A stretch of 21,290 nucleotides of DNA from the IMG/VR virus record IMGVR_UViG_2657244961_000005. One strand, 5' to 3'. The notes beneath the pieces were generated by a model. The model was not told the DNA's origin, made no database searches, and saw only the letters and a program-made list of their open reading frames with translations. Source of the DNA: a virus (lineage: Duplodnaviria; Heunggongvirae; Uroviricota; Caudoviricetes). A program made the position numbers and the translations under genes. Shown piece by piece: positions 3,019 through 21,290 of this stretch (position 1 is the first letter of the stretch; every line of letters begins with the position of its first letter).

Positions 3019-3600
3019 TTACCCTATAGGTGCTACTGGCCATTCAATATCCGGTGCAGTTGTTGTATTAACACGGTTCAGCAACACCCGATACTTCTTC
3101 CAGGCTTCCAGCAACGAGATTTCTTCCTCCGTTGCAATTTCCAGATCTGCAGCATCCTGAAGCGGCGCAATATGCTCACTGGCTACCTGCATCAGGTTGT
3201 TTTTTGTTTCTTCCGCCTCCCGGATCCGGAACAGTTTTTCTGCTTCCGTATCCTTCACCCAGGCTGTGCCGTTCCACTTCTGATATTCCCCTTCCGGCGA
3301 TAACCAGGTGACATTTTCCGGTAACGAGCCAAGTTCAGAAATAAATAACGCGTCGCCGGAAGCCACGTCATAGACGGTTTTTCCCCGATGATCTTCAACG
3401 AGATGCCACGATGCCTCATCACTGTTGAAAACAGCCACAAAGCCAGCCGGAATATCTGGCGGTGCAATATCGGTACTGTTTGCTGGCAGACCTGTATGAG
3501 GCGGAATATATGCGTCACCTTCACCAATAAATTCATTAGTTCCGGCCAGCAGATTATAAATTTTTATGGTCCGTGGTTGTTCACTCATTCTGAATGCCAT
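3019..3600 (-). CDS. Tail fibre assembly protein (Tfa family)
   Basis: 193-aa ORF; translation [24 protein letters not shown]...EWPVAPIG matches the lambdoid Tfa chaperone family from memory; ATG overlaps stop of upstream tail-fibre ORF (TAATG). Confidence 0.9.
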
Positions 3601-5297
3601 TATGCAAGCCTCACAATATAGTTAAATGCGATGTTTTTGACGGTGTTTTCCGCGTTACCAGCAGCGTTAACGGTGATGGTGTGTCCATGTGAACCAATCG
3701 CAACGGAGTGCGTGTGTGCACCAATACCGACAGTATGTGCGTGTGCACCTGCAGATGCTGCTGTGCCGGACAGTGAGTGGCTATGGTTACCATCTGTACT
3801 GGTATTAGCTAACGCCCCCGTAGACATACCTACTGAGCCTTGTACACCCCAGGTATTTTGACCTGAGCTTGTATAACCATATTGATAAGTATCTTTAAAA
3901 ACACTGGGGTTAAATCGACGGCCATCTCTATGGCTGTGATTACCAGCTGCATTCGTGCTGCCACTTAAACTATGGGTATGCGCACCAGTGTTATTCGTGG
4001 ATTTAGTGCCGTAATCAAACGACGATGTGGTTTTCGTCCCCAAATCAGTACTGGATGCGCTGGCGCTGTGGGTATGCGATTTTATGCCGTCCTGTTCCTG
4101 AGACAATACGGCACGACCACTGGCGGGCTTGCCCTTAATCGTCCAGCCACGCATATCAGGGATCACGCCTGACGGATAAGCGGCTGCAAGTTTCGGGTAG
4201 GCAGATTTGTCAAAAGTCTGCCCCTGCATCAGGGCATAACCAGACGGAACGGTATCTGATGGCCACGGGATTGGTGCGCCGACTGGGTAGCTTTCTGGTG
4301 GAAGATTTTTCGAGGTATAAACTTCTGCCCAGTCTTCCTCAAAACCATAACCGTCTCTTGAAGAACGGTAGAACAGACCACCATTTCTGTAATGCGCCTT
4401 CATCTGCAAGGTCCGGCAACTTCCGACTCCGGTATAGAAGTTAACCAGAATATAGCTGTCGCCAGAGCGGGTGACATTATAAGCGCCTGATTCGGCATTC
4501 CAGGGAACGCCACCATCCGCATCGGCATATGTATCCGTTGCCCTTCTGGCAAAAGCAGCCACATGCGCGGCGGTTAAAGTAATATCTTTGGAACCATCAA
4601 ACTCAACACCAGAAACCCGTCTTGGCGTTTGCAGCTTTGTTGCTGTTAATGCATTACCGTTCAGACTTGCGGACAGTTTGGTTCCAATAACCAGTTCGCC
4701 GGTTGCGTTATCAATAGCAAACGGTCTTAATGTATTCCAGCCACCATAAACATCACCTTGATTGGTAAGCAGCAGGTAAGTTTTAGCGCCATCATTACGC
4801 CATAATGCCCCATACTCCCCACCTATCATTCGAATCTGATTACCACCACGCGCTACAATTTCGTCTGTGGCAAAAAGTTTTTTGCACGACAAGTTATCGT
4901 TAACGATTAATGAATGAGACTCATAAAAACCACGCCCACTCTTAAAATCAAGGATAACGTCCGCCGCGATACATTCAGTCGCCGGATTTGTTGCCCCAAA
5001 CTTATAGGTCGTATCATTAACAACGAGATCAGCACCAGGTGCGGATATTGACAGGCCATCTTCGATAAACGCAAAAACAGGGAAAGCAGCGCCATCAACA
5101 TAGAACACAGAGCGCAAATCATCGCCCTTATTACTCATCATTATTGAGTGGATGGCTCGTTCATTGTTTTGATATTGCCAGAACATTCCATAAGCATAAC
5201 GCCCCCTGTCAGTCCAGCCACCAGGCATAACAAATCCGTTATTCGAGCAACCCACCAGCGATATCAGCAGGAACAGGCAGATCACAGGTTTTTTCAC
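3600..5297 (-). CDS. Chimeric side tail fibre protein: lipoprotein-type signal peptide plus unknown ~200-aa region fused to side-tail-fibre distal domain
   Basis: 565-aa ORF; GTG start at 5297 with GGGAG about 10 nt upstream; N-terminus [17 protein letters not shown] has an n-region, hydrophobic core and L-V-G-C lipobox; C-terminal ~350 aa carries His-rich GAHTHS/GNHSHS/GAHAHT repeats typical of lambdoid Stf distal domains; start overlaps 3' end of spanin-like gene by 59 nt. Confidence 0.75.
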
Positions 5298-5562
5298 GGC
5301 GGAGAATCTCCCGGTATTCGATTACGGTTTTTTCGGTGCTGGTGTCGATCAGGGAGTTAAGACTGTTGGCATGTTCTGCAACCTGATTGAATCGATTGAA
5401 GTTGAATGCCTGGGTGGCGATTACCTGCCCCAGCATAGAGTTGTCACTTCGCAGAACGTCGTTATCGCTCTGAAGATTACTGGCGTAAGAGCAACTCTTG
5501 ACGAGAGCGACCGAAAGGCCAGCAATAACGACAACGCCTATAAGATCCGGATTAATTTTCAT
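5239..5562 (-). CDS. Putative i-spanin (Rz-like): N-terminal TM segment plus periplasmic helical region
   Basis: ATG at 5562 overlaps lysozyme stop (ATGA); translation [21 protein letters not shown]... has a single N-terminal TM helix followed by a polar, probably helical region; position immediately after endolysin. Confidence 0.5.
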
Positions 5563-6101
5563 TGCTCCAGCCCCCAGCACGCCAGTGCGCTTTCCTGATC
5601 GCGCCGCTCGACCTGCCCATAACAGCCATTCTTCTGCCCTTTTGTCAGGCGGCAATCACGCCCACCATCTTTTATCCACCAGCGAATCGCCTCGCATGCC
5701 CCCTTACGATCATCGGCATTCAGCCGCTTATAAAACGTCGACGGGAAACACTTACCGGGGCCAATGTTATAGGGACAAAATGACGCTATACCCGCTTTCT
5801 GTGGTTCGGTCAGTGGCACTTTAATATTGCGCTCCACCCATGCCAGCGCCTTATCCCGTTCAATGGCGTTAACCTGGTCGCATTTTTCCTTCGACAGTTT
5901 CATACCGGGAAAAACGGGTTTTCCATCCACCACCGTGGCACCCCGACAGATGGTCCAGATGCCGGAACCATCGCGGTATGCCGTTGTGTGGTTACCTTCT
6001 TTTTCATTCAGAAACTGGTCGAGAATATCAGGCGCAGGCGCACCGACGGCAATCAGTGCCAGAACGGCAGCCGACAGGCCGTATCTGATTTTTACGTTCA
6101 T
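5559..6101 (-). CDS. Endolysin, T4-lysozyme-like (GH24) with SAR-type N-terminal signal-anchor
   Basis: 180 aa; catalytic E-x8-D-x5-T triad present (EKEGNHTTAYRDGSGIWT); N-terminal Gly/Ala-rich weakly hydrophobic segment YGLSAAVLALIAVGAPAP typical of SAR endolysins. Confidence 0.85.
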   Translation of the reverse strand: MNVKIRYGLSAAVLALIAVGAPAPDILDQFLNEKEGNHTTAYRDGSGIWTICRGATVVDGKPVFPGMKLSKEKCDQVNAIERDKALAWVERNIKVPLTEPQKAGIASFCPYNIGPGKCFPSTFYKRLNADDRKGACEAIRWWIKDGGRDCRLTKGQKNGCYGQVERRDQESALACWGLEQ

Positions 6102-6206
6102 GGATTTTTATCAGGATTTATCGGTTTCTGAACCCTGGATATGTTTATCTGTCCCGGCCTGTTGAATCAGGCAAGGAATAGTTAAATACAATAGAGAGGA
6201 TTGTTT

Positions 6207-6479
6207 ATGGACAATAGCACCATTTCTCTACAGGAGTTGCTCGACTGCATTTCCAAGCTTCGGGATGATGTAAATGCCCTTACTGTCGCATTTTCATATC
6301 TGGCATTCTCAATTCCCAAGGAACAAATGCAACCAACACTGGCATCGCTCCAGCTTGAATCACTCAACCCCAAATGGTCCCAGCAACAACAAAATTCTTT
6401 CAAGTGGCTGGCGATATTACTGGAAGAAAAATATGCTGGTGAAATTACCATTTCGGCGGAGTCTTCAGAGAACCAGTAA
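6207..6479 (+). CDS. Hypothetical protein (90 aa), convergent with lysis genes
   Basis: ATG at 6207 preceded by AGAGGA with 6-nt spacing; no family recognised; 3' end overlaps minus-strand ORF 6445-6789 by 35 nt. Confidence 0.3.
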   Translation: MDNSTISLQELLDCISKLRDDVNALTVAFSYLAFSIPKEQMQPTLASLQLESLNPKWSQQQQNSFKWLAILLEEKYAGEITISAESSENQ

Positions 6480-6789
6480 TTCTTCCCGGTAGCTTTCCTT
6501 TGTAGGTTATCCACACATTCTGCGCCTCTAAAATTATGGGGCGCTTTTCCGGCGACAGCTCATCCCCTTCACATAACCCGGCAGCAACATCCAGGAAGAC
6601 CTGTCTGATGCTCCTTCTGGCTGCTGCCTCATAAAACTCCAGCGCGGCACCTTCAACACGGTCCAGCGAGATGTCCAGGTCAAAAATTTCACCGTCAAAG
6701 CGTTCTTTGTCCCGTAACGCTAAAGTTACCGTAACTTTATTCTCAAAATTGCGGATCCCTTTCACAATCAGTTCATATTTTTGAGTCAT
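6445..6789 (-). CDS. Lysis-cassette protein of unknown function (YdfR-like position between holin and endolysin)
   Basis: 114-aa ORF; ATG at 6789 with GGAGAG about 7 nt upstream; holin stop codon lies within its RBS region, suggesting coupling. Confidence 0.6.
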   Translation of the reverse strand: MTQKYELIVKGIRNFENKVTVTLALRDKERFDGEIFDLDISLDRVEGAALEFYEAAARRSIRQVFLDVAAGLCEGDELSPEKRPIILEAQNVWITYKGKLPGRITGSLKTPPKW

Positions 6790-6793
6790 TGAA

Positions 6794-7009
6794 TTACTCT
6801 CCCCGTGCAGCCTTACGCTTGTCTTCTTTAATCTTGAAATAAAGGTTTGTCAGGTACGTCAGCAGGCCAAATACCAGGCTACCCAGCACACCTATTGCTG
6901 CCCACTGTGAGGGCGTGACTTTATCGAGCAGCTGTAAAAACCAGTAGCCAGCACTGCCTGCGGAGGTGCCGTAGGCAATGCCTGTTGAAATTTTGTCCAT
7001 GGATTTCAT
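6794..7009 (-). CDS. Pinholin, phage 21 S-like (class II holin) with dual-start motif
   Basis: 71 aa [26 protein letters not shown]...KRKAARGE; two in-frame Met codons (7009 and 7000) as in S21 holin/antiholin; GGAGG 7 nt upstream. Confidence 0.85.
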
Positions 7010-7107
7010 AGCCTCACCTCCGCACGGAACGGATGGCATAGTTATTATGTGTAGGCTTCCAGACACATCAATCGGAGCCTTAATTGATATATATGCTGGA
7101 GACGATG

Positions 7108-7135
7108 CAATATAAAAAGCTCGCCGTAGCGAGCT
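7108..7135 (-). terminator. Putative rho-independent terminator (minus strand) between lipoprotein gene and holin
   Basis: 7-bp stem agctcgc/gcgagct with cgta loop; on the minus strand followed by TTTTTATATTG. Confidence 0.5.
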
Positions 7136-7260
7136 AATAAAATGTATTTCTCTGATATTATGTTTATTTGTATTAGCTCAGACTTGACATCACAGGTTTC
7201 GTATATAGAACATCATCAAATCTGTCAGTTTGCTATGAATGAGATATAGTAATTGAAGAG

Positions 7261-7656
7261 CTAACCTCGCATGTCAAAGCCAGATTTCTGAAAATCTCTG
7301 TAGACTTCCGGATTGTTGAAGGCCGGAAATTTGGCTTTATGAGCTGCGGACTTTATCGCTTCGCAATAGGCTTTATCACCGTTACTGGTAGATATTTTTA
7401 ACGCCGTGCCATCCTGAGAGAATTCCATATGCAACCTGCATTTTTTCCCTTTCCAGTTATGCGGCTCATCAAGTTTGGCATTAATTGCAGCTCTGATTCC
7501 CCGCGCTTGCGCCCCCCATTCATCCTGATCATCCCAGCGTCCTGAACTGCAACTACCTGTAGCAGTAGTTTTGTGGCAATCTGAAGGGTGTAAAGGTGTG
7601 CATCCCGCAACAAAACCGACCCAAAAAGTCAACATAACGATTTTCTTTAATCCCAC
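7261..7656 (-). CDS. Lipoprotein with TolA C-terminal-domain-like region (paralog 1)
   Basis: 131 aa; GTG start at 7656 with GAGGAG 6 nt upstream; signal peptide with lipobox VAGC; C-terminal ...KCRLHMEFSQDG...CEAIKSAAHKAKFPAFNNPEVYRDFQKSGFD aligns with paralog 2. Confidence 0.7.
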   Translation of the reverse strand: MGLKKIVMLTFWVGFVAGCTPLHPSDCHKTTATGSCSSGRWDDQDEWGAQARGIRAAINAKLDEPHNWKGKKCRLHMEFSQDGTALKISTSNGDKAYCEAIKSAAHKAKFPAFNNPEVYRDFQKSGFDMRG

Positions 7657-7806
7657 TTCTTGCTCCTCAATCCATTAAAATCTCAGCAATAGTAGTTGTT
7701 ACGTCCGCCACTGGCTCAGAGCTGACTATCCGCTAGATTTAGCTCAGTGCCGTAGTTGTGTCAGAACAAACCTAAGCCGAAACCGTTTATTACAAAACAA
7801 TAAATA

Positions 7807-8235
7807 TCAGGGTTTAAAATCCAGCACCCCATTTTGAAATACTTTATATACTTCCGGCGAAGGGGGGGCAGGTATATCAGCATTCTTTATCGCATTCATC
7901 GCTTCACGACATAAATCGAGGTCTCCACTTTCTCTTTTAACCTCCAGTAGAAGGCCATTCGGGGCCATATGCATTCTCAGTGTACACTCTTTTCCTGAAT
8001 ACTTACTCGCATCCCCGAACTGTTTTTCGATGGCGCTCTTGATTTGATGGGCATACAGACGGATATCCTCACTAACATCAGAAGTACGTTCAGATGAACT
8101 CACATACTGTGTCTCTATTGCTTTATCGGAGTAATATGATGTACGGTCATGATAATTTGTCGATACAGCATCAGTGCACCCGATAATAATCCCACTAATA
8201 ATCAACGTAAGAATTGATGCGCTACGAAAACCCAT
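7807..8235 (-). CDS. Lipoprotein with TolA domain III-like C-terminus (paralog 2)
   Basis: 142 aa; ATG at 8235 with GAGGA about 5 nt upstream; lipobox IIGC; C-terminus YAHQIKSAIEKQFGDASKYSGKECTLRMHMAPNGLLLEVKRESGDLDLCREAMNAIKNADIPAPPSPEVYKVFQNGVLDFKP closely parallels the E. coli TolA C-terminal domain as I recall it (...YAGQIKSAIESKFYDASSYAGKTCTLRIKLAPDGMLLDIKPEGGDPALCQAALAAAKLAKIPKPPSQAVYEVFKNAPLDFKP). Confidence 0.75.
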   Translation of the reverse strand: MGFRSASILTLIISGIIIGCTDAVSTNYHDRTSYYSDKAIETQYVSSSERTSDVSEDIRLYAHQIKSAIEKQFGDASKYSGKECTLRMHMAPNGLLLEVKRESGDLDLCREAMNAIKNADIPAPPSPEVYKVFQNGVLDFKP

Positions 8236-8264
8236 TTTTCCTCACATATGTCATATAGTAAAGG

Positions 8265-8294
8265 ATTATATATACCGTTGTTTTGGACGCTCAA
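8265..8294 (-). promoter_or_regulatory. Candidate sigma70 promoter for lipoprotein gene 7807-8235
   Basis: On minus strand: -35 TTGAGC (8294-8289), 18-bp spacer, -10 TATAAT (8270-8265), about 29 nt upstream of the ATG. Confidence 0.35.
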
Positions 8295-8768
8295 ACAGCG
8301 AATCAGATCAAATAAAACGCACATTTGTTAACATTTACACAAAGTCTGCGTGGGATATTCTGAAAGAATATCCATAATGTGGAGAGAATCTATTGAAGTG
8401 CATGGTGCCGGGGGCCTCCCGGTGAATTCAGTACCAGCACCTGAATCCACGATTATCCCATATACCTACTCGCTGATTGCCCCTCCGCACAGGGGGATTC
8501 ACCATGCCAGTTTCTTTTAACAAACTCCCCGCAAACCAGAGAACAGTCAACCGCCTGAATTGTGAAGTATTTAAAAATTTCTCCCGCTAACTGATACCCG
8601 GCTAACAGTCTGGCGTTTTCTTTTTCAGCAACGGGAAAGCAACAACTACCACACCCGCCACCAGCACACCGTCAGCCAGCACTGACATTATCCGGCTGCT
8701 GCAATGCCATTCACAAAAACAGTAAGCAATCACTTTTTACCGTAACAGGTGATAATCCAGATATGTAT

Positions 8769-9122
8769 CTACCCCAGATGAGTAATCCGAAGTTCATCCA
8801 TACCACAGGTCCTGGCTATTCTGTTGTACTCCTGAACAAGAGCAAATAATTCTGAATTAGCAACCATGAACTCATCGCAAACCCTCTGTATAGCATCACT
8901 ATTCAGAATAATAACGTCTCTTCCCGAAAGACGATCAGGAGCACAGAACAAAACTGTCAAACGGCTGAAGGCCTTTGCTCGTGCTGCATTGACTATATCA
9001 ATACGCTGCCTAAGGATGAAACACCCCGACGCCTCATCAATATTCACTCTACCCACACCATATGAATGATAAATATTTAATGCTGAAAAAACCATTAGAC
9101 CGTATAACAAACACTCAATCAA
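8769..9122 (-). CDS. Hypothetical protein (108-117 aa), uncertain start
   Basis: ORF begins with TTG at 9122; first ATG at 9095 lacks a clear SD; no family recognised; lies just downstream of the phage tRNA cluster. Confidence 0.3.
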   Translation of the reverse strand: MIECLLYGLMVFSALNIYHSYGVGRVNIDEASGCFILRQRIDIVNAARAKAFSRLTVLFCAPDRLSGRDVIILNSDAIQRVCDEFMVANSELFALVQEYNRIARTCGMDELRITHLG

Positions 9123-9232: not shown

Positions 9233-9309
9233 TGGCGCGCTGTACTGGATTCGAACCAGTGACCGATTGCTTAGAAGGCAATTGCTCTGTCCGGCTGAGC
9301 TAACAACGC
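9233..9309 (-). tRNA. tRNA-Arg (anticodon UCU), phage-encoded
   Basis: 77-nt cloverleaf folded by hand: acceptor GCGTTGT/ACAGCGC, D-arm GCTC..GAGC, anticodon stem ATTGC/GCAAT with loop CTTCTAA, T-arm ACTGG-TTCGAAT-CCAGT, discriminator G, encoded CCA. Confidence 0.85.
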
Positions 9310-9417: not shown

Positions 9418-9493
9418 TGGTGGCCCTTGCTGGATTTGAACCAGCGACCTGGCGATTATGAGTCGCTCGCTCTCACCACTGAGCTAAAGGACC
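9418..9493 (-). tRNA. tRNA with CAU anticodon (Met or lysidine-Ile2 type; resembles phage ileZ-type tRNA)
   Basis: 76-nt cloverleaf: acceptor GGTCCTT/AAGGGCC, D-arm GCTCAGTGGTGAGAGC, anticodon loop CTCATAA, T-arm GCTGG-TTCAAAT-CCAGC, discriminator A, encoded CCA. Confidence 0.85.
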
Positions 9494-9526: not shown

Positions 9527-9556
9527 CGCAATAAAAAACCCGCTCGGTGGCGGGTT
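9527..9556 (-). terminator. Rho-independent terminator downstream of Q (tR'-like)
   Basis: 7-bp stem aacccgc/gcgggtt with 6-nt loop; on the minus strand followed by TTTTTTATTG. Confidence 0.55.
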
Positions 9557-9636: not shown

Positions 9637-10458
9637 TTACCTAGTTACCTTTTTTAACTGCCGCTCAGCCCATGCTTCTTCAATATCAAACCGGGTCACC
9701 AGCGCATCATAGAATTTCTTAACTGTTTTTTCCCATGACGCGCGTGTTATCTGGTTTGTCACCTCGCATATAGCATTAAATGCCTCCGTTGATGGTAGTC
9801 TTTCATAGCCACGACCACCACAACGCTGGCAGTCTCTGATAACAGGCATACCACGTTTTACCGACTCTTCACGGTGAATGGCGACACCACGCCCACGGCA
9901 ATCCTTACAGGCGGTGGAAACCTCACCCTTTCCGCCACACTCCGGACAGGCAACTTTTACCACCTCCCTGACTTTTTTCCATTCTTCCCAGTAAGACGGA
10001 TACACACCTTTCGTACACTTTGCCCATACCGGCGGCTTACCATCCGGATACTGGACCTTGTTTGTAAAAACTACGCTTTCAATAAATTTTTCCCCATAGC
10101 AACAAGGGCACTGCTTTTTACTCGCTGCGCTGCGGGCATAATCCTCAAAAGCGTACGAAGCCATAATGCGCATCACTAACGGTTTTATTTCTGCCGGAAG
10201 TTTTCTCAACGCCGCCACACGATCGCACCGACTGAGTGCATAATCTGCCAGTAATTCTGTTGCCCGCGCCCTGTCATTCATACTGATGCCCATTTTCCCC
10301 AGGAACGCAGAAAACCCCATCTCAGCCCGATTCTGTGTCATGCCCTGCGCGGCCATCACATCAGTGATACTCAGCGCATCTTTTGACGTTGAGGCCGATG
10401 CATCGGTCAGGCAAGGGGATTTTGGGGAGTAGTATTTCGGTAAATCTTCCAGTTTCAT
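9637..10458 (-). CDS. Late-gene antiterminator Q-like protein with Cys-rich zinc-finger motifs
   Basis: 273 aa; CPCC...CPECGGKG...CKDCRGRG...CQRCGGRG motifs; position between RusA and the late promoter/tRNAs/lysis genes; 4-nt overlap with rusA (ATGA). Confidence 0.75.
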   Translation of the reverse strand: MKLEDLPKYYSPKSPCLTDASASTSKDALSITDVMAAQGMTQNRAEMGFSAFLGKMGISMNDRARATELLADYALSRCDRVAALRKLPAEIKPLVMRIMASYAFEDYARSAASKKQCPCCYGEKFIESVVFTNKVQYPDGKPPVWAKCTKGVYPSYWEEWKKVREVVKVACPECGGKGEVSTACKDCRGRGVAIHREESVKRGMPVIRDCQRCGGRGYERLPSTEAFNAICEVTNQITRASWEKTVKKFYDALVTRFDIEEAWAERQLKKVTR

Positions 10459-13402: not shown

Positions 13403-14404
13403 TTAGTAATCTGCGTATTTCGCACTTTTCAGAAATGCTTTCATATTTTCATTAGGTCGCTCAATTTCGAAGTTACTTCCATATAACTCTTGTAATTTTG
13501 GCCATAACTTACTTAATAACCCTCTCCTGCGATAAAATGGATGTATCCAAACGGTAGATAGGTACGGAGAATTTGCATTTGAATTGTTTATTGTGACCAG
13601 CCCAACTAAACATTGTCGATAACCACTATTATCCATTGATTGTATTTCTTCGACGAATGGATACGCGATTACATCAGTCCAACCATGATCGGTTGTATCC
13701 CATTGCATTCCGTCATGACATTCCTTCGACTGATAGCGGCGTAAAGCTACACACGCGAGCTTTTGCCAATCTGGAGAATTAATTGTGATCTCTTCATCGT
13801 ATGACGCGCCTATTGGAGCGGGTATTGGTCTGATTAATCCAGCATGGCATTCATCATAGAACTTCATGTTTCCCTCAGAAACGTTGTGTACGTTGGGTTG
13901 CTCCATGTGTGCGCCATTCAAAAATAGCTCTGATAGTAGTGTATCTACACTGTAATCTTTATTGATTATTGTCGGCTTAGAGTTTTTCTTATTAAGGCCG
14001 CGAGTAACGATTTTTTGATCAATGTTAACAACATGGAATAATCCGTCGGGGAGACTAGCGAACCACGATGGGGCATCGGACCAGAATAGCATGCCTTTTG
14101 TACTTCTTAAGAGTTTAATTAAGTTAATACAAGCTTCTTCACTAGTCTTGCCGTTGATGCGAAGTATGTTAGGACTAAAGTAATATTCATCCATATCAGG
14201 GAATGCAGCTTCGCAAAACTCCTGTACATAATTTAGCACCTGGATTCTACAGAGATCATCATAGCTGGTAATAACTAAGGGGATATCTTCATTACTATTA
14301 TGATTATCAATAATGCAATCTATAGCGAGACTTACTGCTTTGCGTATCACTTCAGTTGAATCTAACGACTCTAAAAATTTTGTCTTTCGTGTGCGAATAT
14401 CCAT
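13403..14404 (-). CDS. Cassette gene B: unknown N-terminal domain plus C-terminal GNAT-like acetyltransferase fold (inferred)
   Basis: 333 aa; ATG at 14404, 15 nt after the stop of gene A; markedly AT-rich (about 25-35% GC in sampled 60-nt stretches versus about 50% in flanking phage genes); C-terminal ...YLSTVWIHPFYRRRGLLSKL...NENMKAFLKSAKY resembles GNAT motif A and the C-terminal helix. Confidence 0.7.
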   Translation of the reverse strand: MDIRTRKTKFLESLDSTEVIRKAVSLAIDCIIDNHNSNEDIPLVITSYDDLCRIQVLNYVQEFCEAAFPDMDEYYFSPNILRINGKTSEEACINLIKLLRSTKGMLFWSDAPSWFASLPDGLFHVVNIDQKIVTRGLNKKNSKPTIINKDYSVDTLLSELFLNGAHMEQPNVHNVSEGNMKFYDECHAGLIRPIPAPIGASYDEEITINSPDWQKLACVALRRYQSKECHDGMQWDTTDHGWTDVIAYPFVEEIQSMDNSGYRQCLVGLVTINNSNANSPYLSTVWIHPFYRRRGLLSKLWPKLQELYGSNFEIERPNENMKAFLKSAKYADY

Positions 14405-14419
14405 GTATGACCTGCGCTA

Positions 14420-15442
14420 TTAAAATTCATGAATGAACGGTTTGTCATCTGGTTGCAAAATGGTGGTTTTATTCGTTGCTACATTTAAACTGTTGTAGAG
14501 CATAATTGCCAGGTTCGATGCATTTTCAATCAGCGTTTCAAGATCCTGGTCTGTAATCACTACGAGGTTCCCTTCTTTATCCTTTCCACCACGATGCACT
14601 AAGTGATTTCGATTGAGGGTTGCCAATTCAATAGCTTCTATCGGACAGTCTTTTTGTACTTTTATATCGAATGTAGCTTCATAGCGGTCGATTACCTTTT
14701 TAGTGCTATGCCAGCTTGCACTGATCAAGTGTTCCTTGATTGACCTGATTAGCTCTCCCCTAATTTTCTCGATGGGTTCACCCTTGAAAGGCAACGCAGC
14801 AATATCTTTGCTTACTTTAAATTCAGTCTTACCTTTTTCTATACAATTGGCTATGTAGACATCATCTTTCTCTATAGAATTAATGAATAGCTCAACATAA
14901 AGCGTTTCCAAAGCTGTAATAACATTCGTGTAGAGCAAACTAAGCAAGTGGTTTTTTTGCTGTTGTTCAGTTTTATCTTTTGCAAGTTTTTTTATTTTAT
15001 CGATATTATCAATGAATTTTAAATACGGATTACCGGAAGACGTTACAGCGTCGTAGATATCATCATCGTACCAATCATCTATATTATTTGAGTTTCCAGA
15101 CCAGTCAAAACATTGTGTTTGTAATTCATCTACTAATTCCTCAATATACTCAGATTTAACATATTGACCGAAGATGGATTGTAGTTCTTCGCTCGCATCA
15201 TACGGCCCGCCATATATGTAAGCATAGCCACCTTCTCTACTTTCATACGGACAAGCATTTGCCGGATCTTCAAAGTTTTCAAAGAACCAGTTTTTCATTA
15301 CTTCGAGTTGATCTTTTTTGCTTATGTATTTTAAAGATTTTAGTGGAACTTTCTTTCCATTAACCTCGAAAACAATTTTCACGATGTAACGCTCCCTTGT
15401 ATCAATTGCGCAACTATTATACCACAGCGAAATACAGGGCAT
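14420..15442 (-). CDS. Cassette gene A: unknown protein with possible C-terminal HEPN-like Rx4H motif (inferred)
   Basis: 340 aa from ATG at 15442, which is preceded by a near-consensus SD AAGGAGG with 6-nt spacing (the ORF-track extension to 15532 is not supported); AT-rich; motif NRNHLVHRGG (R-x4-H) within a helical-looking C-terminal region. Confidence 0.7.
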   Translation of the reverse strand: MPCISLWYNSCAIDTRERYIVKIVFEVNGKKVPLKSLKYISKKDQLEVMKNWFFENFEDPANACPYESREGGYAYIYGGPYDASEELQSIFGQYVKSEYIEELVDELQTQCFDWSGNSNNIDDWYDDDIYDAVTSSGNPYLKFIDNIDKIKKLAKDKTEQQQKNHLLSLLYTNVITALETLYVELFINSIEKDDVYIANCIEKGKTEFKVSKDIAALPFKGEPIEKIRGELIRSIKEHLISASWHSTKKVIDRYEATFDIKVQKDCPIEAIELATLNRNHLVHRGGKDKEGNLVVITDQDLETLIENASNLAIMLYNSLNVATNKTTILQPDDKPFIHEF

Positions 15443-15573
15443 AACCTGCCTCCTTAAACTAACATACCATGAGCCAGCAATGTCCGCTATTGGCACAAAG
15501 CGGACAACCACGCTAGCTCTACCCTGTGCCACAAAATGTCAATTTGCATCTGAACTAATGCACTTTAATCTCG

Positions 15574-17178: not shown

Positions 17179-17604
17179 TCAATGTACTGCCACAGCATTT
17201 CCTGCCGGGCCACCACGGTTCATCTGATTGAAACCGGCGATTGCCACTGCGACAAAATCATCAGCGTCTCTCACCAGTCGCTCCCGCGTCTCCACCAGCT
17301 CCCGAAAATAAGCTGAACTGTGGCTGCGCATTCTGGCCACCAGCAAAGGTGGCATTGCCTTTTCGATCGCTGGTAACAACGCCTGAATTTTTTCAACTGC
17401 ATCAGGGGTGTCTTTCTCTATCCAGCGGAAAATTTTCTGGGTATTGCGAGCCAGGGCTTCCGGATGGCTGTCGTCGTACAGTTCAGGAAACGTCATACCC
17501 AACTCAAAATAAGCCTGGGTTATTCCAGCTGCCGGAACTTTTTCGCCATCAGGACGCGCCCAGGCATTCATCGCCATGCGGATGTGTTCATGCTTGATTT
17601 TCAT
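17179..17604 (-). CDS. YdaT-like phage protein (putative regulator/toxin family)
   Basis: 141 aa from ATG at 17604 (MKIKHEHIRMAMNAW...) with AGGGGGG-type SD; family assignment from memory of Rac YdaT. Confidence 0.55.
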   Translation of the reverse strand: MKIKHEHIRMAMNAWARPDGEKVPAAGITQAYFELGMTFPELYDDSHPEALARNTQKIFRWIEKDTPDAVEKIQALLPAIEKAMPPLLVARMRSHSSAYFRELVETRERLVRDADDFVAVAIAGFNQMNRGGPAGNAVAVH

Positions 17605-17632
17605 GAATCCCCCCTTGGTTAGAAGGCGGATT

Positions 17633-19651
17633 ATGATCAGAACCGGGAATGACAACCGTCGGTATGTGTATCCGGAGCTTAAGTTGCACGCCATTGGGTG
17701 GGTTAAGCATAAATGTATTCCTGGTGCTAAATGGCCCGAAATTCAGGCAGAGATGCGCATCTGGAAAAAACGTCGCGAAGGTGAACGCAAGGAAACCGGA
17801 AAATACACGTCTGTTGTTGATCTCGCCCGCGCCAGAACCAATCAACAGTACACTGAAAATTCAACAGGAAAAATCAGCCCGGTCATTGCTGCCATTCATC
17901 GCGAATACAAGCAGACATGGAAAACACTGGATGACGAACTGGCCTACGCTCTCTGGCCTGGTGATGTGGATGCCGGAAACATTGACGGCAGCATCCATCG
18001 CTGGGCAAAAAAAGAAGTTATCGACAACGACCGCGAAGACTGGAAGCGTATCTCGGCATCAATGCGCAAACAGCCTGATGCCCTTCGCTACGACCGCCAG
18101 ACTATTTTTGGCCTTGTCCGTGAGCGTCCGATCGACATTCACAAAGATCCCATAGCACTGAACAAATATATCTGCGAATACCTGACGACAAAGGGCGTGT
18201 TTGAGAATGAAGAAACAGACCTGGGCACTGTTGATGTTCTCCAGTCATCAGAAACACAAACTGATGCAGTGGAAACTGAGGTATCTGATATCCCAAAAAA
18301 TGAAACCGCGCCGGAAGCTGAACCATCTGTAGAGCGTGAGGGGCCGTTCTATTTCCTCTTCGCAGATAAGGACGGAGAAAAATACGGTCGCGCAAACAAA
18401 CTTTCTGGTCTGGATAAGGCACTGGCTGCTGGCGCCACTGAAATCACAAAAGAAGAATATTTTGCCCGAAAAAATGGCACATACACGGGCTTACCGCAAA
18501 ATGTAGATACCGCTGAAGATTCAGAACAACCAGAGCCGATAAAAGTTACCGCTGACGAAGTAAACAAAATTATGCAGGCAGCCAATATCAGCCAGCCTGA
18601 CGCCGATGAACTGCTTGCAGTATCACGTGGTGAATTTGTTGAAGGGATTAGCGACCCGAATGATCCGAAATGGATTAAGGGGATCCAGACCCGCGATTCT
18701 GTGAACCAGAACCAGCAAGAAACGGAACAGAACGACCAGAAAGCGGAACAAAACAGCCCAAATACGCAACAAAACGAGCCAGAAACGAAACAACCTGAAC
18801 CAGTAGTGCAACAGGAACCGGAAAAGATCTGCACCGCCTGCGGTCAGAGCGGTGGCGGCAACTGCCCTGATTGTGGTGCGGTGATGGGTGACGCAACATA
18901 CCAGGAAATATTCGATGGAGAGAATCAGCCTGAAGTTCAGGAAAATGATCCGGAGGAAATGGAAGGCACTGCGCATCAGCACAAGGAGAACACTGGCGGC
19001 AATCAGCATCATGCCAGCGATAGTGAAACTGGCGAGGCGTCAGATCCCTTAATTAAGGCAAACGGTCATCATAATCTCACATCCACCAGCAGAGCGGGGA
19101 TTCATCTGATGATCGACCTTGAAACCATGGGAAAAAATCCCGATGCCCCGATTATCTCAATAGGTGCAATATTTTTCGATCCGCAAACCGGAGATATGGG
19201 ACCGGAATTTAGTAAGACTATCGATCTGGAAACTGCTGGCGGAGTCATTGATCGGGACACCATTAAATGGTGGCTTAAACAATCACGCGAAGCGCAATCT
19301 GCCATTATGACCGATGAAATCCCGTTAGATGATGCACTGTTACAATTGCGGGAATTTATCGACGAAAACTCCGGTGAATTTTTTGTTCATGTCTGGGGAA
19401 ATGGAGCCAACTTCGACAACACGATTTTGCGCCGTTCATACGAACGGCAGGAGATCCCCTGCCCGTGGCGTTACTACAACGATCGCGATGTACGCACAAT
19501 CGTTGAGCTGGGGAAAGCCATAGACTTCGATGCCAGAACGGCTATTCCATTCGAAGGTGAGCGCCATAATGCACTTGATGACGCCCGTTACCAGGCAAAA
19601 TACGTTTCAGTTATCTGGCAAAAACTGATCCCGAGTCAGGCTGATTCTTAA
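17633..19651 (+). CDS. Chimeric exonuclease: RecE-like N-terminal/middle region, Q/E-rich linker, Cys4 motif, C-terminal DEDDh (DnaQ-like) 3'-5' exonuclease domain
   Basis: 672 aa from ATG at 17633 (AAGG SD); segment DELLAVSRGEFVEGISDPNDPKWIKGIQTRD resembles RecE as I recall it; CTACGQSGGGNCPDCG motif; exo motifs MIDLETMG, GNGANFD and HNALDDARY. Confidence 0.75.
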   Translation: MIRTGNDNRRYVYPELKLHAIGWVKHKCIPGAKWPEIQAEMRIWKKRREGERKETGKYTSVVDLARARTNQQYTENSTGKISPVIAAIHREYKQTWKTLDDELAYALWPGDVDAGNIDGSIHRWAKKEVIDNDREDWKRISASMRKQPDALRYDRQTIFGLVRERPIDIHKDPIALNKYICEYLTTKGVFENEETDLGTVDVLQSSETQTDAVETEVSDIPKNETAPEAEPSVEREGPFYFLFADKDGEKYGRANKLSGLDKALAAGATEITKEEYFARKNGTYTGLPQNVDTAEDSEQPEPIKVTADEVNKIMQAANISQPDADELLAVSRGEFVEGISDPNDPKWIKGIQTRDSVNQNQQETEQNDQKAEQNSPNTQQNEPETKQPEPVVQQEPEKICTACGQSGGGNCPDCGAVMGDATYQEIFDGENQPEVQENDPEEMEGTAHQHKENTGGNQHHASDSETGEASDPLIKANGHHNLTSTSRAGIHLMIDLETMGKNPDAPIISIGAIFFDPQTGDMGPEFSKTIDLETAGGVIDRDTIKWWLKQSREAQSAIMTDEIPLDDALLQLREFIDENSGEFFVHVWGNGANFDNTILRRSYERQEIPCPWRYYNDRDVRTIVELGKAIDFDARTAIPFEGERHNALDDARYQAKYVSVIWQKLIPSQADS

Positions 19652-19994: not shown

Positions 19995-21290
19995 ATGAGA
20001 GAAGTTGAAATGAAATATCCGACAGGCGTGGAAAACCATGGAGGGAAATTACGTATCTGGTTTGTTTATAAAGGCGTAAGAGTCAGGGAAAATCTGGGGG
20101 TTCCTGACACAGCAAAAAACAGGCGCGTTGCAGGTGAACTACGCGCCTCTGTTTGTTACGCAATAAAAACTGGTGTTTTCGACTATGCAAAACAGTTTCC
20201 CTCCTCACGCAATCTGGAAAAATTTGGTGAGGCCCGACAAGATTTAACCATAAAAGAACTGGCTGAAAAATTTCTGGCACTGAAAGAAACTGAAGTCGCC
20301 AAAACATCACTCAACACATACCGTGCCGTCATCAAAAATATCCTGAGCATAATCGGTGAAAAAAATCTTGCCTCATCGATTAATAAAGAAAAATTACTGG
20401 AGGTTCGTAAAGAGTTACTGACTGGATACCAGATCCCCAAAAGTAACTATATTGTTACACAACCAGGGAGATCGGCTGTAACTGTAAATAATTACATGAC
20501 AAATCTTAACGCCGTGTTCCAGTTTGGTGTTGATAACGGTTACCTGGCAGATAATCCGTTTAAGGGGATCTCGCCATTAAAGGAATCAAGAACCATTCCG
20601 GATCCTCTTTCGCGGGAAGAATTTATCCGTCTTATCGATGCGTGCAGAAATCAGCAAGCAAAAAATTTATGGTGTGTTTCTGTTTATACTGGCGTTCGCC
20701 CTGGTGAGCTGTGTGCACTTGGATGGGAGGACATAGATCTGAAAAATGGAACAATGATGATCAGGAGAAATTTAGCAAAAGACCGTTTCACGGTACCAAA
20801 AACACAGGCGGGAACCAATCGGGTCATTCATCTTATTAAGCCAGCAATCGACGCTCTCCGGAGTCAGATGACATTAACGAGACTGAGCAAAGAGCATATC
20901 ATTGATGTTCACCTCAGAGAGTATGGCAGAACAGAAAAACATAAATGCACCTTTGTTTTTCAACCTGAAGTGTCAGCGAGAGTAAAAAATTATGGTGACC
21001 ATTTTACCGTTGACTCAATAAGGCAGATGTGGGACGCAGCGATAAAACGTGCCGGACTCCGCCATCGAAAATCATATCAGTCGAGACATACTTATGCCTG
21101 CTGGTCGCTGACAGCTGGTGCTAACCCGGCATTTATAGCAAACCAGATGGGCCATGCAGATGCGCAAATGGTATTTCAGGTATACGGAAAATGGATGTCT
21201 GAAAACAATAATGCACAGGTAGCTTTGTTAAATACACAGTTAAGCGAGTTTGCCCCAACCATGCCCCATAACGAAGCAATGAAAAATTAA
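19995..21290 (+). CDS. Tyrosine-type site-specific integrase
   Basis: 431 aa (start may be the ATG at 20010); conserved R...HxxR...Y catalytic region (SRHTYACW, MGHADAQMVFQVYGKW); terminal gene of the element. Confidence 0.9.
   Translation: MREVEMKYPTGVENHGGKLRIWFVYKGVRVRENLGVPDTAKNRRVAGELRASVCYAIKTGVFDYAKQFPSSRNLEKFGEARQDLTIKELAEKFLALKETEVAKTSLNTYRAVIKNILSIIGEKNLASSINKEKLLEVRKELLTGYQIPKSNYIVTQPGRSAVTVNNYMTNLNAVFQFGVDNGYLADNPFKGISPLKESRTIPDPLSREEFIRLIDACRNQQAKNLWCVSVYTGVRPGELCALGWEDIDLKNGTMMIRRNLAKDRFTVPKTQAGTNRVIHLIKPAIDALRSQMTLTRLSKEHIIDVHLREYGRTEKHKCTFVFQPEVSARVKNYGDHFTVDSIRQMWDAAIKRAGLRHRKSYQSRHTYACWSLTAGANPAFIANQMGHADAQMVFQVYGKWMSENNNAQVALLNTQLSEFAPTMPHNEAMKN

Follow-up and report, generated by a model that had tools for sequence, protein, structure and literature searches.

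TolA is the closest described relative of the two proteins that concern us here. Its C-terminal domain, domain III, has an alpha/beta fold made up of three helices, one further short helix and a sheet of three strands, and in the intact protein it follows domain I, which couples to TolQR, and a long domain II, the whole being encoded in the tol-pal operon. Export of domain III to the periplasm reportedly renders E. coli colicin-tolerant and leaky (Levengood-Freyermuth, Click and Webster, J Bacteriol, 1993), and periplasmic g3p is reported to have the mirror-image effect (Boeke, Model and Zinder, 1982). The N1 domain of g3p, colicin N and TolB bind TolA at strand beta3 (residues 412-420) by beta-strand addition, which the substitutions D418P or K420P abolish (PMC4339652), and colicin A uses a site made up of beta2 (375-LLDIKP-380) together with K368, K379 and K396 (PMC3365938). 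Here we describe two genes, P1 and P2, on the minus strand of a 21,290-nucleotide stretch of viral DNA (IMG/VR record IMGVR_UViG_2657244961_000005, Caudoviricetes), the whole of which we call the window. Each encodes a TolA domain III on a small predicted lipoprotein, and we suggest that the pair may serve as outer-membrane-tethered decoys against Tol-dependent bacteriocins and filamentous phages, a reading to which we give a little less than an even chance.

Both P1 and P2 carry a true TolA domain III. The Pfam family PF06519 (TolA C-terminal) scores 54.6 bits in P1 and 82.6 bits in P2 against a gathering score of 25, and in a phmmer search of the PDB (entries 1S62, 3QDP, 2X9A and 1TOL) residues 55-142 of P2 aligned without a gap to residues 334-421 of E. 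coli TolA, its C-terminal end, with E = 5e-28, while residues 50-129 of P1 matched with E = 5e-9. Over TolA 334-421 the identity is 52/88 (59%) for P2 and 27/88 (31%) for P1. The cysteine pair of TolA, C363/C388, is kept in both proteins and is invariant across an alignment of 46 diverse lipoproteins of the family. AlphaFold2 models of both proteins reach a predicted local distance difference test score (pLDDT) above 80 over the domain, with low confidence at residues 1-37 of P1 and 1-49 of P2. When the P1 model was searched against the PDB with Foldseek, the top matches were all TolA domain III, with TonB C-terminal domains far lower; against 3QDP the search gave E = 1e-8, a target-normalised template-modelling score of 0.92 and a root-mean-square deviation of 1.1 A. 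The fold of P2 was assigned from its sequence identity together with its AlphaFold2 model. Both proteins are also full-length members of PHROG 5772 (E = 7e-65 and 2e-62).

By sequence, P1 and P2 are paralogous beyond chance, with 29% identity over 141 columns (BLASTP, E = 2e-18). An earlier note on this DNA, made from its letters alone, had described them as paralogous lipoprotein-type genes with Shine-Dalgarno sequences and lipoboxes, and both open reading frames (ORFs) are present as it described. Its further statement that P2 is close to the C-terminus of E. coli TolA is borne out by the gapless alignment, and the comparison with TolA domain III structures that it proposed, by alignment and by structure prediction, came out in favour of the domain in both proteins. 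The pattern of shared C-terminal residues that it listed is right in substance, with a few spacings off by one or two residues. Its claim of TolA-III-like C-termini in both proteins holds for the domain itself, as judged by PF06519 and the fold, and does not extend to close mimicry by P1, in which the colicin A site is lost.

The N-termini of the two proteins look like those of lipoproteins. A Shine-Dalgarno sequence stands before each gene (GAGGAG, 7 nt 5' of the GTG of P1; GAGGA, 5 nt 5' of the ATG of P2), and a basic n-region and a hydrophobic h-region precede the lipobox, which reads FVAG|C19 followed by T-P in P1 and IIIG|C20 followed by T-D in P2; the lipobox was tested at the level of the pattern [LVI][ASTVI][GAS]C. 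In E. coli, the Lol rule holds that Asp at position +2 keeps a lipoprotein in the inner membrane. Because this residue is Thr in both P1 and P2, and neither has Asp, sorting to the outer membrane is expected, and the two proteins are probably lipidated and located there. Only 30-35 residues lie between the predicted lipid-bearing Cys and domain III.

In regard to classification, P1 and P2 belong to the TolA-C domain family on every feature tested and do not belong to TolA proper. They have neither domain I, the transmembrane anchor, nor the long helical domain II, in place of which there is a lipoprotein signal peptide, and their genes lie outside the tolQRA-tolB-pal operon, between the prophage gene Q with its tRNAs and the holin gene. 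Against the NF007065 equivalog model the two proteins score 53.7 and 107.8 bits, below the cut-off of 213. Against TIGR02794, with a cut-off of 59.45, P1 stays below at 47.2 bits and P2 rises above at 75.6 bits through its C-terminal 97 residues only; it is because TIGR02794 is passed through these last 97 residues that the Prokaryotic Genome Annotation Pipeline (PGAP) names P2 'tolA'. In E. coli KSC9 (locus L013), whose sequence is 100% identical to positions 7100-8400 of the window, PGAP calls P2 a 'tolA, incomplete, missing N-terminus' pseudogene that spans only the last 87 codons, and it places the start of P1 at an internal Met. Since the ORF of P2 is complete and its new N-terminus is present, the pseudogene label is an annotation artefact. 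Elsewhere the PGAP name is 'cell envelope integrity TolA C-terminal domain-containing protein'. The labels of PHROG 5772 and of NCBI TolA-C include these same proteins, but they are computational and have no function attached. The domain label is already public, so the bare observation of the domain is not new; the novelty, judged by the literature that was accessible, is that these are intact lipoproteins and not fragments of tolA. The standard 'tolA' and pseudogene labels conceal an intact lipoprotein gene.

The surfaces at which TolA meets its ligands have fared differently within this family, as read from residue conservation. Among the 46 aligned lipoproteins the beta3 segment FKNAxLDFK is strongly conserved (F419 in 39 members, K/R420 in 36, D418 in 34 and L417 in 32), with no proline at positions 417-420, and the colicin A site is variable. 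In P2, beta3 reads VLDFKP where TolA has PLDFKP, and Y340, I344 and the helix QIKSAIE are identical to those of TolA; its colicin A site reads LLEVKR, and with H/K/K at the lysine positions it keeps two of the three cation-pi lysines. P1-type genes are under purifying selection, with a ratio of nonsynonymous to synonymous substitution rates (dN/dS) of about 0.14 across 29 species-level genes, a value that is approximate because synonymous sites are near saturation.

P1 has in addition an N-terminal motif rich in Cys and His, and no other segment of P1-type proteins is as strongly conserved (mean column identity 0.87, compared with 0.81 for the domain; dN/dS 0.11). It is kept in Klebsiella variants of 47-53% identity and is absent from P2 and from most other family members. 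In the AlphaFold2 model its pLDDT is below 50. With its two additional Cys and two His, the motif might form a disulfide loop or a metal site, and from its sequence it is possibly a second binding epitope. A likeness to the colicin TolB box (PMC2821528) was considered and left as speculation, with the Trp-Trp spacing off by one residue.

The pair is common, and its relatives are more widespread still. At 99% identity or more, the 1.3-kb P2-P1 pair occurs in 773 of 5426 complete E. coli genomes (14%), and at least part of it is matched in 1341 of them (about a quarter); it is also found in Shigella and in phage mEp460_ev081. A tblastn search of P1 against GenBank phages matched only mEp460_ev081, and a scan of viral sequences with an alignment of 15 members led back to these E. 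coli loci. P1-type proteins form 370 clusters at 90% identity and are 78-89% identical across Citrobacter, Enterobacter, Klebsiella, Raoultella, Serratia, Leclercia, Pantoea, Kluyvera and others. Most are encoded by standalone chromosomal genes, the neighbours of which vary by genus and in most species are unrelated metabolic genes; conserved synteny was rejected on this ground. In at least 12 species the chromosomal P1-type genes share a promoter-like module, TTGAAA-18 nt-AA(G/A/T)AAT, together with the 5' untranslated region (5'UTR), and the DNA 5' of this module is unrelated between species (loci L017-L040 and L009 aligned). P1 of the window and the plasmid copies retain only the final ~45 nt of the upstream module, namely the 5'UTR and Shine-Dalgarno sequence, the promoter part being gone.

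About 600 plasmids carry a P1-type gene. On I-complex plasmids (IncB/O/K/Z) it lies 68 bp 3' of the relaxase gene nikB on the same strand (L003, L218 and L219), and on pO157-type IncF plasmids it is flanked by insertion sequence elements close to hok and psiAB, its place being between toxB or insertion sequence elements on one side and the hok/psiAB leading region on the other (L002 and L220). Plasmid matches of 90-95 kb were considered as P1-like phage-plasmids, an identification that we rejected, as they are of these same pO157-type IncF and I-complex kinds. When 1.84 billion representatives were searched with a profile, 565 matched. Among the best 150 of these, 64 have a lipobox within the first 60 residues, most being 110-160 amino acids (aa) long, and in no case does Asp follow the lipobox Cys of these 64 at +2. 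In several others the signal peptide is of the ordinary kind. Named family members come from Serratia, Kosakonia and Dryocola and are all auto-labelled 'TolA', others are chromosomal singletons, and dozens of 50%-identity clusters share the same design of a lipobox and TolA domain III only. A gene for a 134-aa TolA-III lipoprotein (L225:6001-6405) also occurs in a phage-like contig with a VapE-like primase, T5orf172 and small same-strand ORFs; because this contig carries a member too, the family is not confined to lambdoid prophages. The existence in Enterobacterales of a large lipobox-bearing TolA-III-only family, on prophages, plasmids and chromosomes, is new to judge from the literature that could be consulted, as are the purifying selection on its P1 type, the family-wide conservation of the beta3 edge, the Cys/His module and the chromosomal promoter of the P1 type, the partnership with a TonB domain in Klebsiella, and the defence by co-receptor mimicry that these features together suggest.

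In Klebsiella, a second import-related head stands beside the first. A 125-aa ORF with a cleavable Sec signal peptide and a TonB C-terminal domain (TonB-CTD; PF03544, E = 3e-12 to 9e-16) lies 50-59 bp 5' of the P1-type gene, on the same strand, on a Klebsiella plasmid and in K. grimontii and K. michiganensis. Judging by their domains, these paired motor-less TonB and TolA heads point to import machineries as the common theme.

A decoy function, which the earlier note had put forward, might operate as follows. P1 and P2 would hold a TolA domain III at the inner, periplasmic surface of the outer membrane, unlinked to the TolQR motor. The translocation domains of colicins and the N1 domain of g3p, on emerging through the outer membrane, would need TolA domain III next, and decoys located at the point of entry would capture these ligands first. 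Because a predicted lipid anchor replaces the TolQR-coupled domain I, the decoy domain could not transduce force; import would abort and the cell would be tolerant. P2 would take the ligands of the beta3 edge (g3p-N1 of the Ff, If1 and IKe phages, and colicin N) and perhaps colicin A, and P1, as a divergent variant with an extra N-terminal module, might cover other ligands. Transcription of the P2-P1 unit would start at the late promoter, and perhaps also at one that belongs to the unit itself. For both proteins we infer ligand binding, expression in the lysogen and a protective phenotype.

We favour the decoy reading because the pair is intact and so nearly identical in so many genomes though the prophage is defective, and because the domain, the beta3 edge, the sorting signal, the carriers among phages and pilus-bearing plasmids, and the TonB-CTD partner all agree with it. 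Purifying selection on the P1 type counts in its favour too, as do the reported colicin tolerance of cells with periplasmic TolA-III and, more weakly, the PARIS, ATPase-Toprim or GmrSD/HEPN genes that adjoin the P1-type gene at a few chromosomal sites. The pili of I-complex plasmids are receptors of the TolA-dependent phage If1, and PDB entry 2X9A is If1 g3p bound to TolA.

Several observations weigh against a decoy function. P1 is the weaker mimic: only 27 of 88 residues are identical to TolA, its beta3 reads SGFDMRG and its colicin A site ALKIST, and none of the three colicin A lysines remains, their positions reading E/S/H. The 78-89% identity of P1 across genera does not obviously track the TolA of each host, and the decoy idea has no need of the conserved N-terminal motif. 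The conservation of beta3 cannot separate a decoy from a modulator of Tol-Pal, because the same edge binds TolB. The candidate promoter ahead of P2 has TGTAAT as its -10 in a 91% identical P2 variant and lies in a region unrelated to that of a 66% variant; because it is not conserved, expression in the lysogen is a presumption, and an autonomous promoter of P2 is a candidate only, promoter-like sites in this region of the window numbering 10 where 6.5 are expected. PADLOC gave no match for P1, P2 or the ORF at 8769-9122 at E values up to 1. Defence genes stand beside the P1-type gene in 3 of 27 chromosomal loci, a count that has no control set, and an association with defence islands was left as weak. 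Full-text searches of the literature found no paper on these proteins; PMC10326431 and PMC11684603 were set aside because TolA occurs in their reference lists only.

The main rival explanation, which we find less attractive than a decoy function, is that P1 and P2 modulate Tol-Pal. A tethered TolA domain III would compete with TolA for the N-terminus of TolB and damp the mobilisation of Pal; high expression from the late operon would loosen the outer membrane, with vesiculation, leakiness and release of phage or cargo, whereas a low chromosomal level would tune the envelope, and tolerance to colicins and phages would come about as a by-product. Cells with TolA-III or g3p domains in the periplasm do become leaky and hypervesiculate, which counts for this explanation, as does the position of P2-type genes in the Q-dependent late transcript, directly 5' of the lysis genes like stx. 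The conservation of the P1 type across genera fits a conserved host partner such as TolB, the conserved promoter that chromosomal P1-type genes have of their own suggests a housekeeping-like role, and the surface that the family conserves is the very beta3 edge that binds TolB (PMC4339652, PMC7391070). However, the interaction of TolA with TolB is weak (dissociation constant 40-200 uM; PMC7391070), so that titration would need very high copy numbers, and a tol-like phenotype would be costly, which sits badly with the persistence of the pair inside a defective prophage in 14% of complete E. coli genomes and with chromosomal copies that look constitutive. Plasmid copies behind a relaxase gene would gain nothing obvious from a weakened envelope. 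Furthermore, a role during lysis, which the earlier note had raised, is doubtful for this copy because the prophage is a defective, Qin-like one, and without intact spanin or structural genes a lysis-helper role cannot maintain it. We regard Tol-Pal modulation as unlikely, though worth keeping in sight.

Less likely still is a different partner altogether, with the TolA-like fold as a scaffold, the Cys/His motif of P1 as the business end, directed at an outer-membrane protein, a peptidoglycan enzyme or a metal, and P2 as a separate phage-specific offshoot. The rank of that motif as the most conserved part of P1-type proteins would fit, as would the divergence of P1 from TolA at both known ligand sites and the unrelated metabolic neighbours in most species, but P2 and most family members do without the motif and keep the beta3 edge nearly unchanged, the TolA-III domain is itself under strong purifying selection, and the pairing with a TonB C-terminal domain indicates import machineries. 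That the genes are decaying, non-functional fragments of a captured tolA gene deserves hardly any credence. The pseudogene call in KSC9 and the defective state of the prophage might invite such a reading, which is contradicted by the evidence: both ORFs are complete, with a Shine-Dalgarno sequence and a new lipoprotein signal peptide replacing TolA domains I and II; P2-type variants of 66-91% identity in different phages all keep the 142-aa architecture; the P1 type has a dN/dS of 0.14; and dozens of 50%-identity clusters repeat the same design.

If a decoy function is taken further, motor-less TolA-CTD lipoproteins and secreted TonB-CTD proteins might together make up a new class of periplasmic immunity, carried by mobile elements and by Enterobacterales chromosomes, in which the import epitopes of bacteriocins and filamentous phages would be intercepted as they reach the inner side of the outer membrane. 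The lambdoid decoy would sit at the stx site, the decoy of I-complex plasmids would offset the liability that their pili create towards phages, and the Cys/His module of P1 would perhaps provide a second grip, for example on TolB. We consider this wider proposal possible but on balance doubtful.

The window itself is a defective, Qin-like prophage situated at ydfJ (Table 1). On the minus strand, the order is early region, DUF968, RusA, Q, a tR'-like terminator, tRNAs, a DUF3927 ORF, P2 and P1, and after P1 come a terminator, an S21-type holin, DUF1327, lysozyme, a tail-fibre fragment, a tail-fibre assembly gene and a truncated ydfJ. No intact spanin, terminase or head genes were found in the prophage (window 3600-6101 examined), and the lysozyme gene abuts the tail-fibre fragment. 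The same module is also present in the viable phage mEp460_ev081 (LR597641). The earlier note had placed the pair in the Q-to-holin locus, the position of stx in Stx phages, and this is correct: Stx2_EH2201 has the same frame, in the order Q, tRNAs, stx2A, stx2B, nanS-p, holin, and the tRNA block of the window shares 86-90% identity with its counterpart in more than 170 Stx2-phage records. Its description of P1 and P2 as prophage lipoproteins is right for this locus and too narrow for the family, given that the P1 type is mostly chromosomal and also found on plasmids. In K-12 Qin, the same Q-to-holin frame holds cspB/cspF. P2-type variants (66-91% identity) stand at this position in further prophages, both complete and defective, behind different Q types, one of them directly 5' of a nanS-p-like esterase gene, and in these prophages no P1 gene lies 3' of P2.

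P2 and P1 appear to form one transcription unit in which P1 is a promoterless cassette behind P2. DNA homologous to the chromosomal and plasmid copies of P1 begins ~45 nt 5' of its start codon, and the megablast match to plasmid copies covers the P1 ORF and 30 nt only. Having no promoter of its own, P1 would have to be read from the promoter of P2 or from pR'. By analogy with pR'/tR' of lambda, the hairpin that follows Q would be the site of read-through by Q-modified polymerase. A terminator or structured element in the spacer between P2 and P1 was rejected (z = -0.55 against shuffles, and no terminator-like site). Also rejected as a gene was the ORF at 8769-9122 (117 aa, TTG start), which has no family match, no PGAP call and a terminator-like site inside.

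Table 1. Features of the P2-P1 locus and of compared loci. Positions without a locus number are those of the window; L-numbered positions belong to other loci.
Feature	Position	Strand	Details
Lysis cassette	5559..7066	-	S21-type holin 6794-7066, DUF1327 (YdfR) 6445-6789, lysozyme 5559-6101; Pfam, and PGAP for the identical KSC9 locus
Intrinsic-terminator-like hairpin	7108..7135	-	AGCTCGC-TACG-GCGAGCT + TTTTTAT; 125 nt past P1 stop, before holin; pattern level
P1 lipoprotein gene	7261..7656	-	131 aa, GTG start; ORF; PF06519 at 1.3e-14
P1 parts (residues)			Predicted signal peptide 1-18, predicted lipid Cys19, Cys/His N-terminal motif 19-49, divergent TolA domain III ~50-131
P1 motif, residues 19-49	7510..7602	-	C-x-P-L-H-P-S-x-C-H-K-T-T-A-x-G-x-C-S-S-G-R-W-D-D-Q-D-E-W-G
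P2-P1 spacer	7657..7806	-	Last ~45 nt = 5'UTR and Shine-Dalgarno sequence common to P1-type genes
P2 lipoprotein gene	7807..8235	-	142 aa, ATG start; ORF; PF06519 at 2.4e-23
P2 parts (residues)			Predicted signal peptide 1-19, predicted lipid Cys20, variable linker 21-54, TolA domain III 55-142
Sigma-70 promoter-like site	8265..8294	-	TTGAGC-18 nt-TATAAT; 10/12 consensus; ~30 nt 5' of P2 start
DUF3927 ORF	8602..8733	-	43 aa; PF13064 at 1.7e-27; between tRNAs and P2
tRNA-Arg(TCT)	9233-9309	-	ARAGORN
tRNA-Ile2/Met(CAT)	9418-9493	-	ARAGORN
Terminator-like hairpin, tR'-like	9537..9556	-	~80 nt 3' of Q
Late antiterminator Q	9637..10458	-	PF03589 at 2.6e-55; late operon start
TonB-CTD ORF	L042:6574-6951, L044:6565-6942, L045:6565-6942		Klebsiella loci
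Fused PARIS AriAB	L017:8320-9948		E = 1e-180
ATPase-Toprim	L029:7679-9646		PtuA / retron I-C effector-like
GmrSD_N + HEPN pair	L009:8957-10736		

Some other features of the prophage are recorded here as observations in their own right. DNA homologous to the DUF3927 ORF is labelled in phage JLK-2012, by similarity only, as 'TciB-like inhibition of cell division or resistance to colicin'. On the minus strand at 13403-15532, two ORFs of 333 and 370 aa have weak GNAT and HEPN/RES N-terminal matches (E ~1e-3 to 2e-4) and are possibly an accessory or defence pair. On the plus strand, positions 17576-19651 encode a 691-aa protein, the C-terminal 170 residues of which form an Rv2179c-like 3'-5' exoribonuclease domain (E = 4e-66) and the N-terminal 500 residues of which have no match. 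This gene adjoins an integrase gene (19995-21290, plus strand) and is divergent from a YdaT-like gene.

Our findings may bear on how strains of enteric bacteria compete. If P1 and P2 confer tolerance, they would be a common and overlooked determinant of competition among gut strains and a confounder for bacteriocin and phage therapeutics, for phage display and for M13 tools in wild strains, and they would constitute the first natural defence that works by mimicry of a periplasmic co-receptor and not by masking of a surface receptor. Should their role lie in tuning Tol-Pal, mobile elements would carry, at the site of Shiga toxin, natural regulators of outer-membrane stability and vesiculation. 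About a quarter of complete E. coli genomes have one such gene or more, and I-complex resistance plasmids, pO157 and the genera Klebsiella, Enterobacter, Citrobacter and Serratia have relatives.

Compared with the known systems, P1 and P2 share with TolA domain III (1S62, 3QDP, 1TOL, 2X9A and 3QDR) the fold, the PF06519 match and the disulfide pair, and P2 comes closest, with a beta3 edge and alpha2 helix that are nearly identical, but everything that connects TolA to its motor and operon is missing. The laboratory constructs that place TolA-III, g3p or colicin T-domains in the periplasm resemble P1 and P2 in being motor-less periplasmic copies, and the likeness lies in the proposed mode of action; those constructs are artificial or made by filamentous phages, whereas P1 and P2 are natural, predicted to be lipid-anchored, and found on tailed prophages, plasmids and chromosomes. 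Llp of T5, Cor of phi80, N15 and HK022, and TraT of F are likewise small lipoproteins of phages or plasmids that are thought to block the entry of competitors. The comparison with Llp and Cor is one of analogy only, since these have no sequence relation to P1 and P2, for which Pfam and PHROG return only TolA and the unknown-function phrog_5772; moreover, Llp and Cor inactivate the surface receptor FhuA, whereas P1 and P2 mimic a periplasmic co-receptor. In their genomic setting, P2 and P1 are most like the cargo genes stx1 and stx2, with which they share the site between Q and holin, the upstream tRNA block and an expected dependence on antitermination by Q. The pair sits, as a moron would, between conserved late genes in the slot that holds stx2AB in Stx phages; the stx cargo is a toxin, whereas P2-P1 is a pair of envelope lipoproteins in a defective Qin-like prophage.

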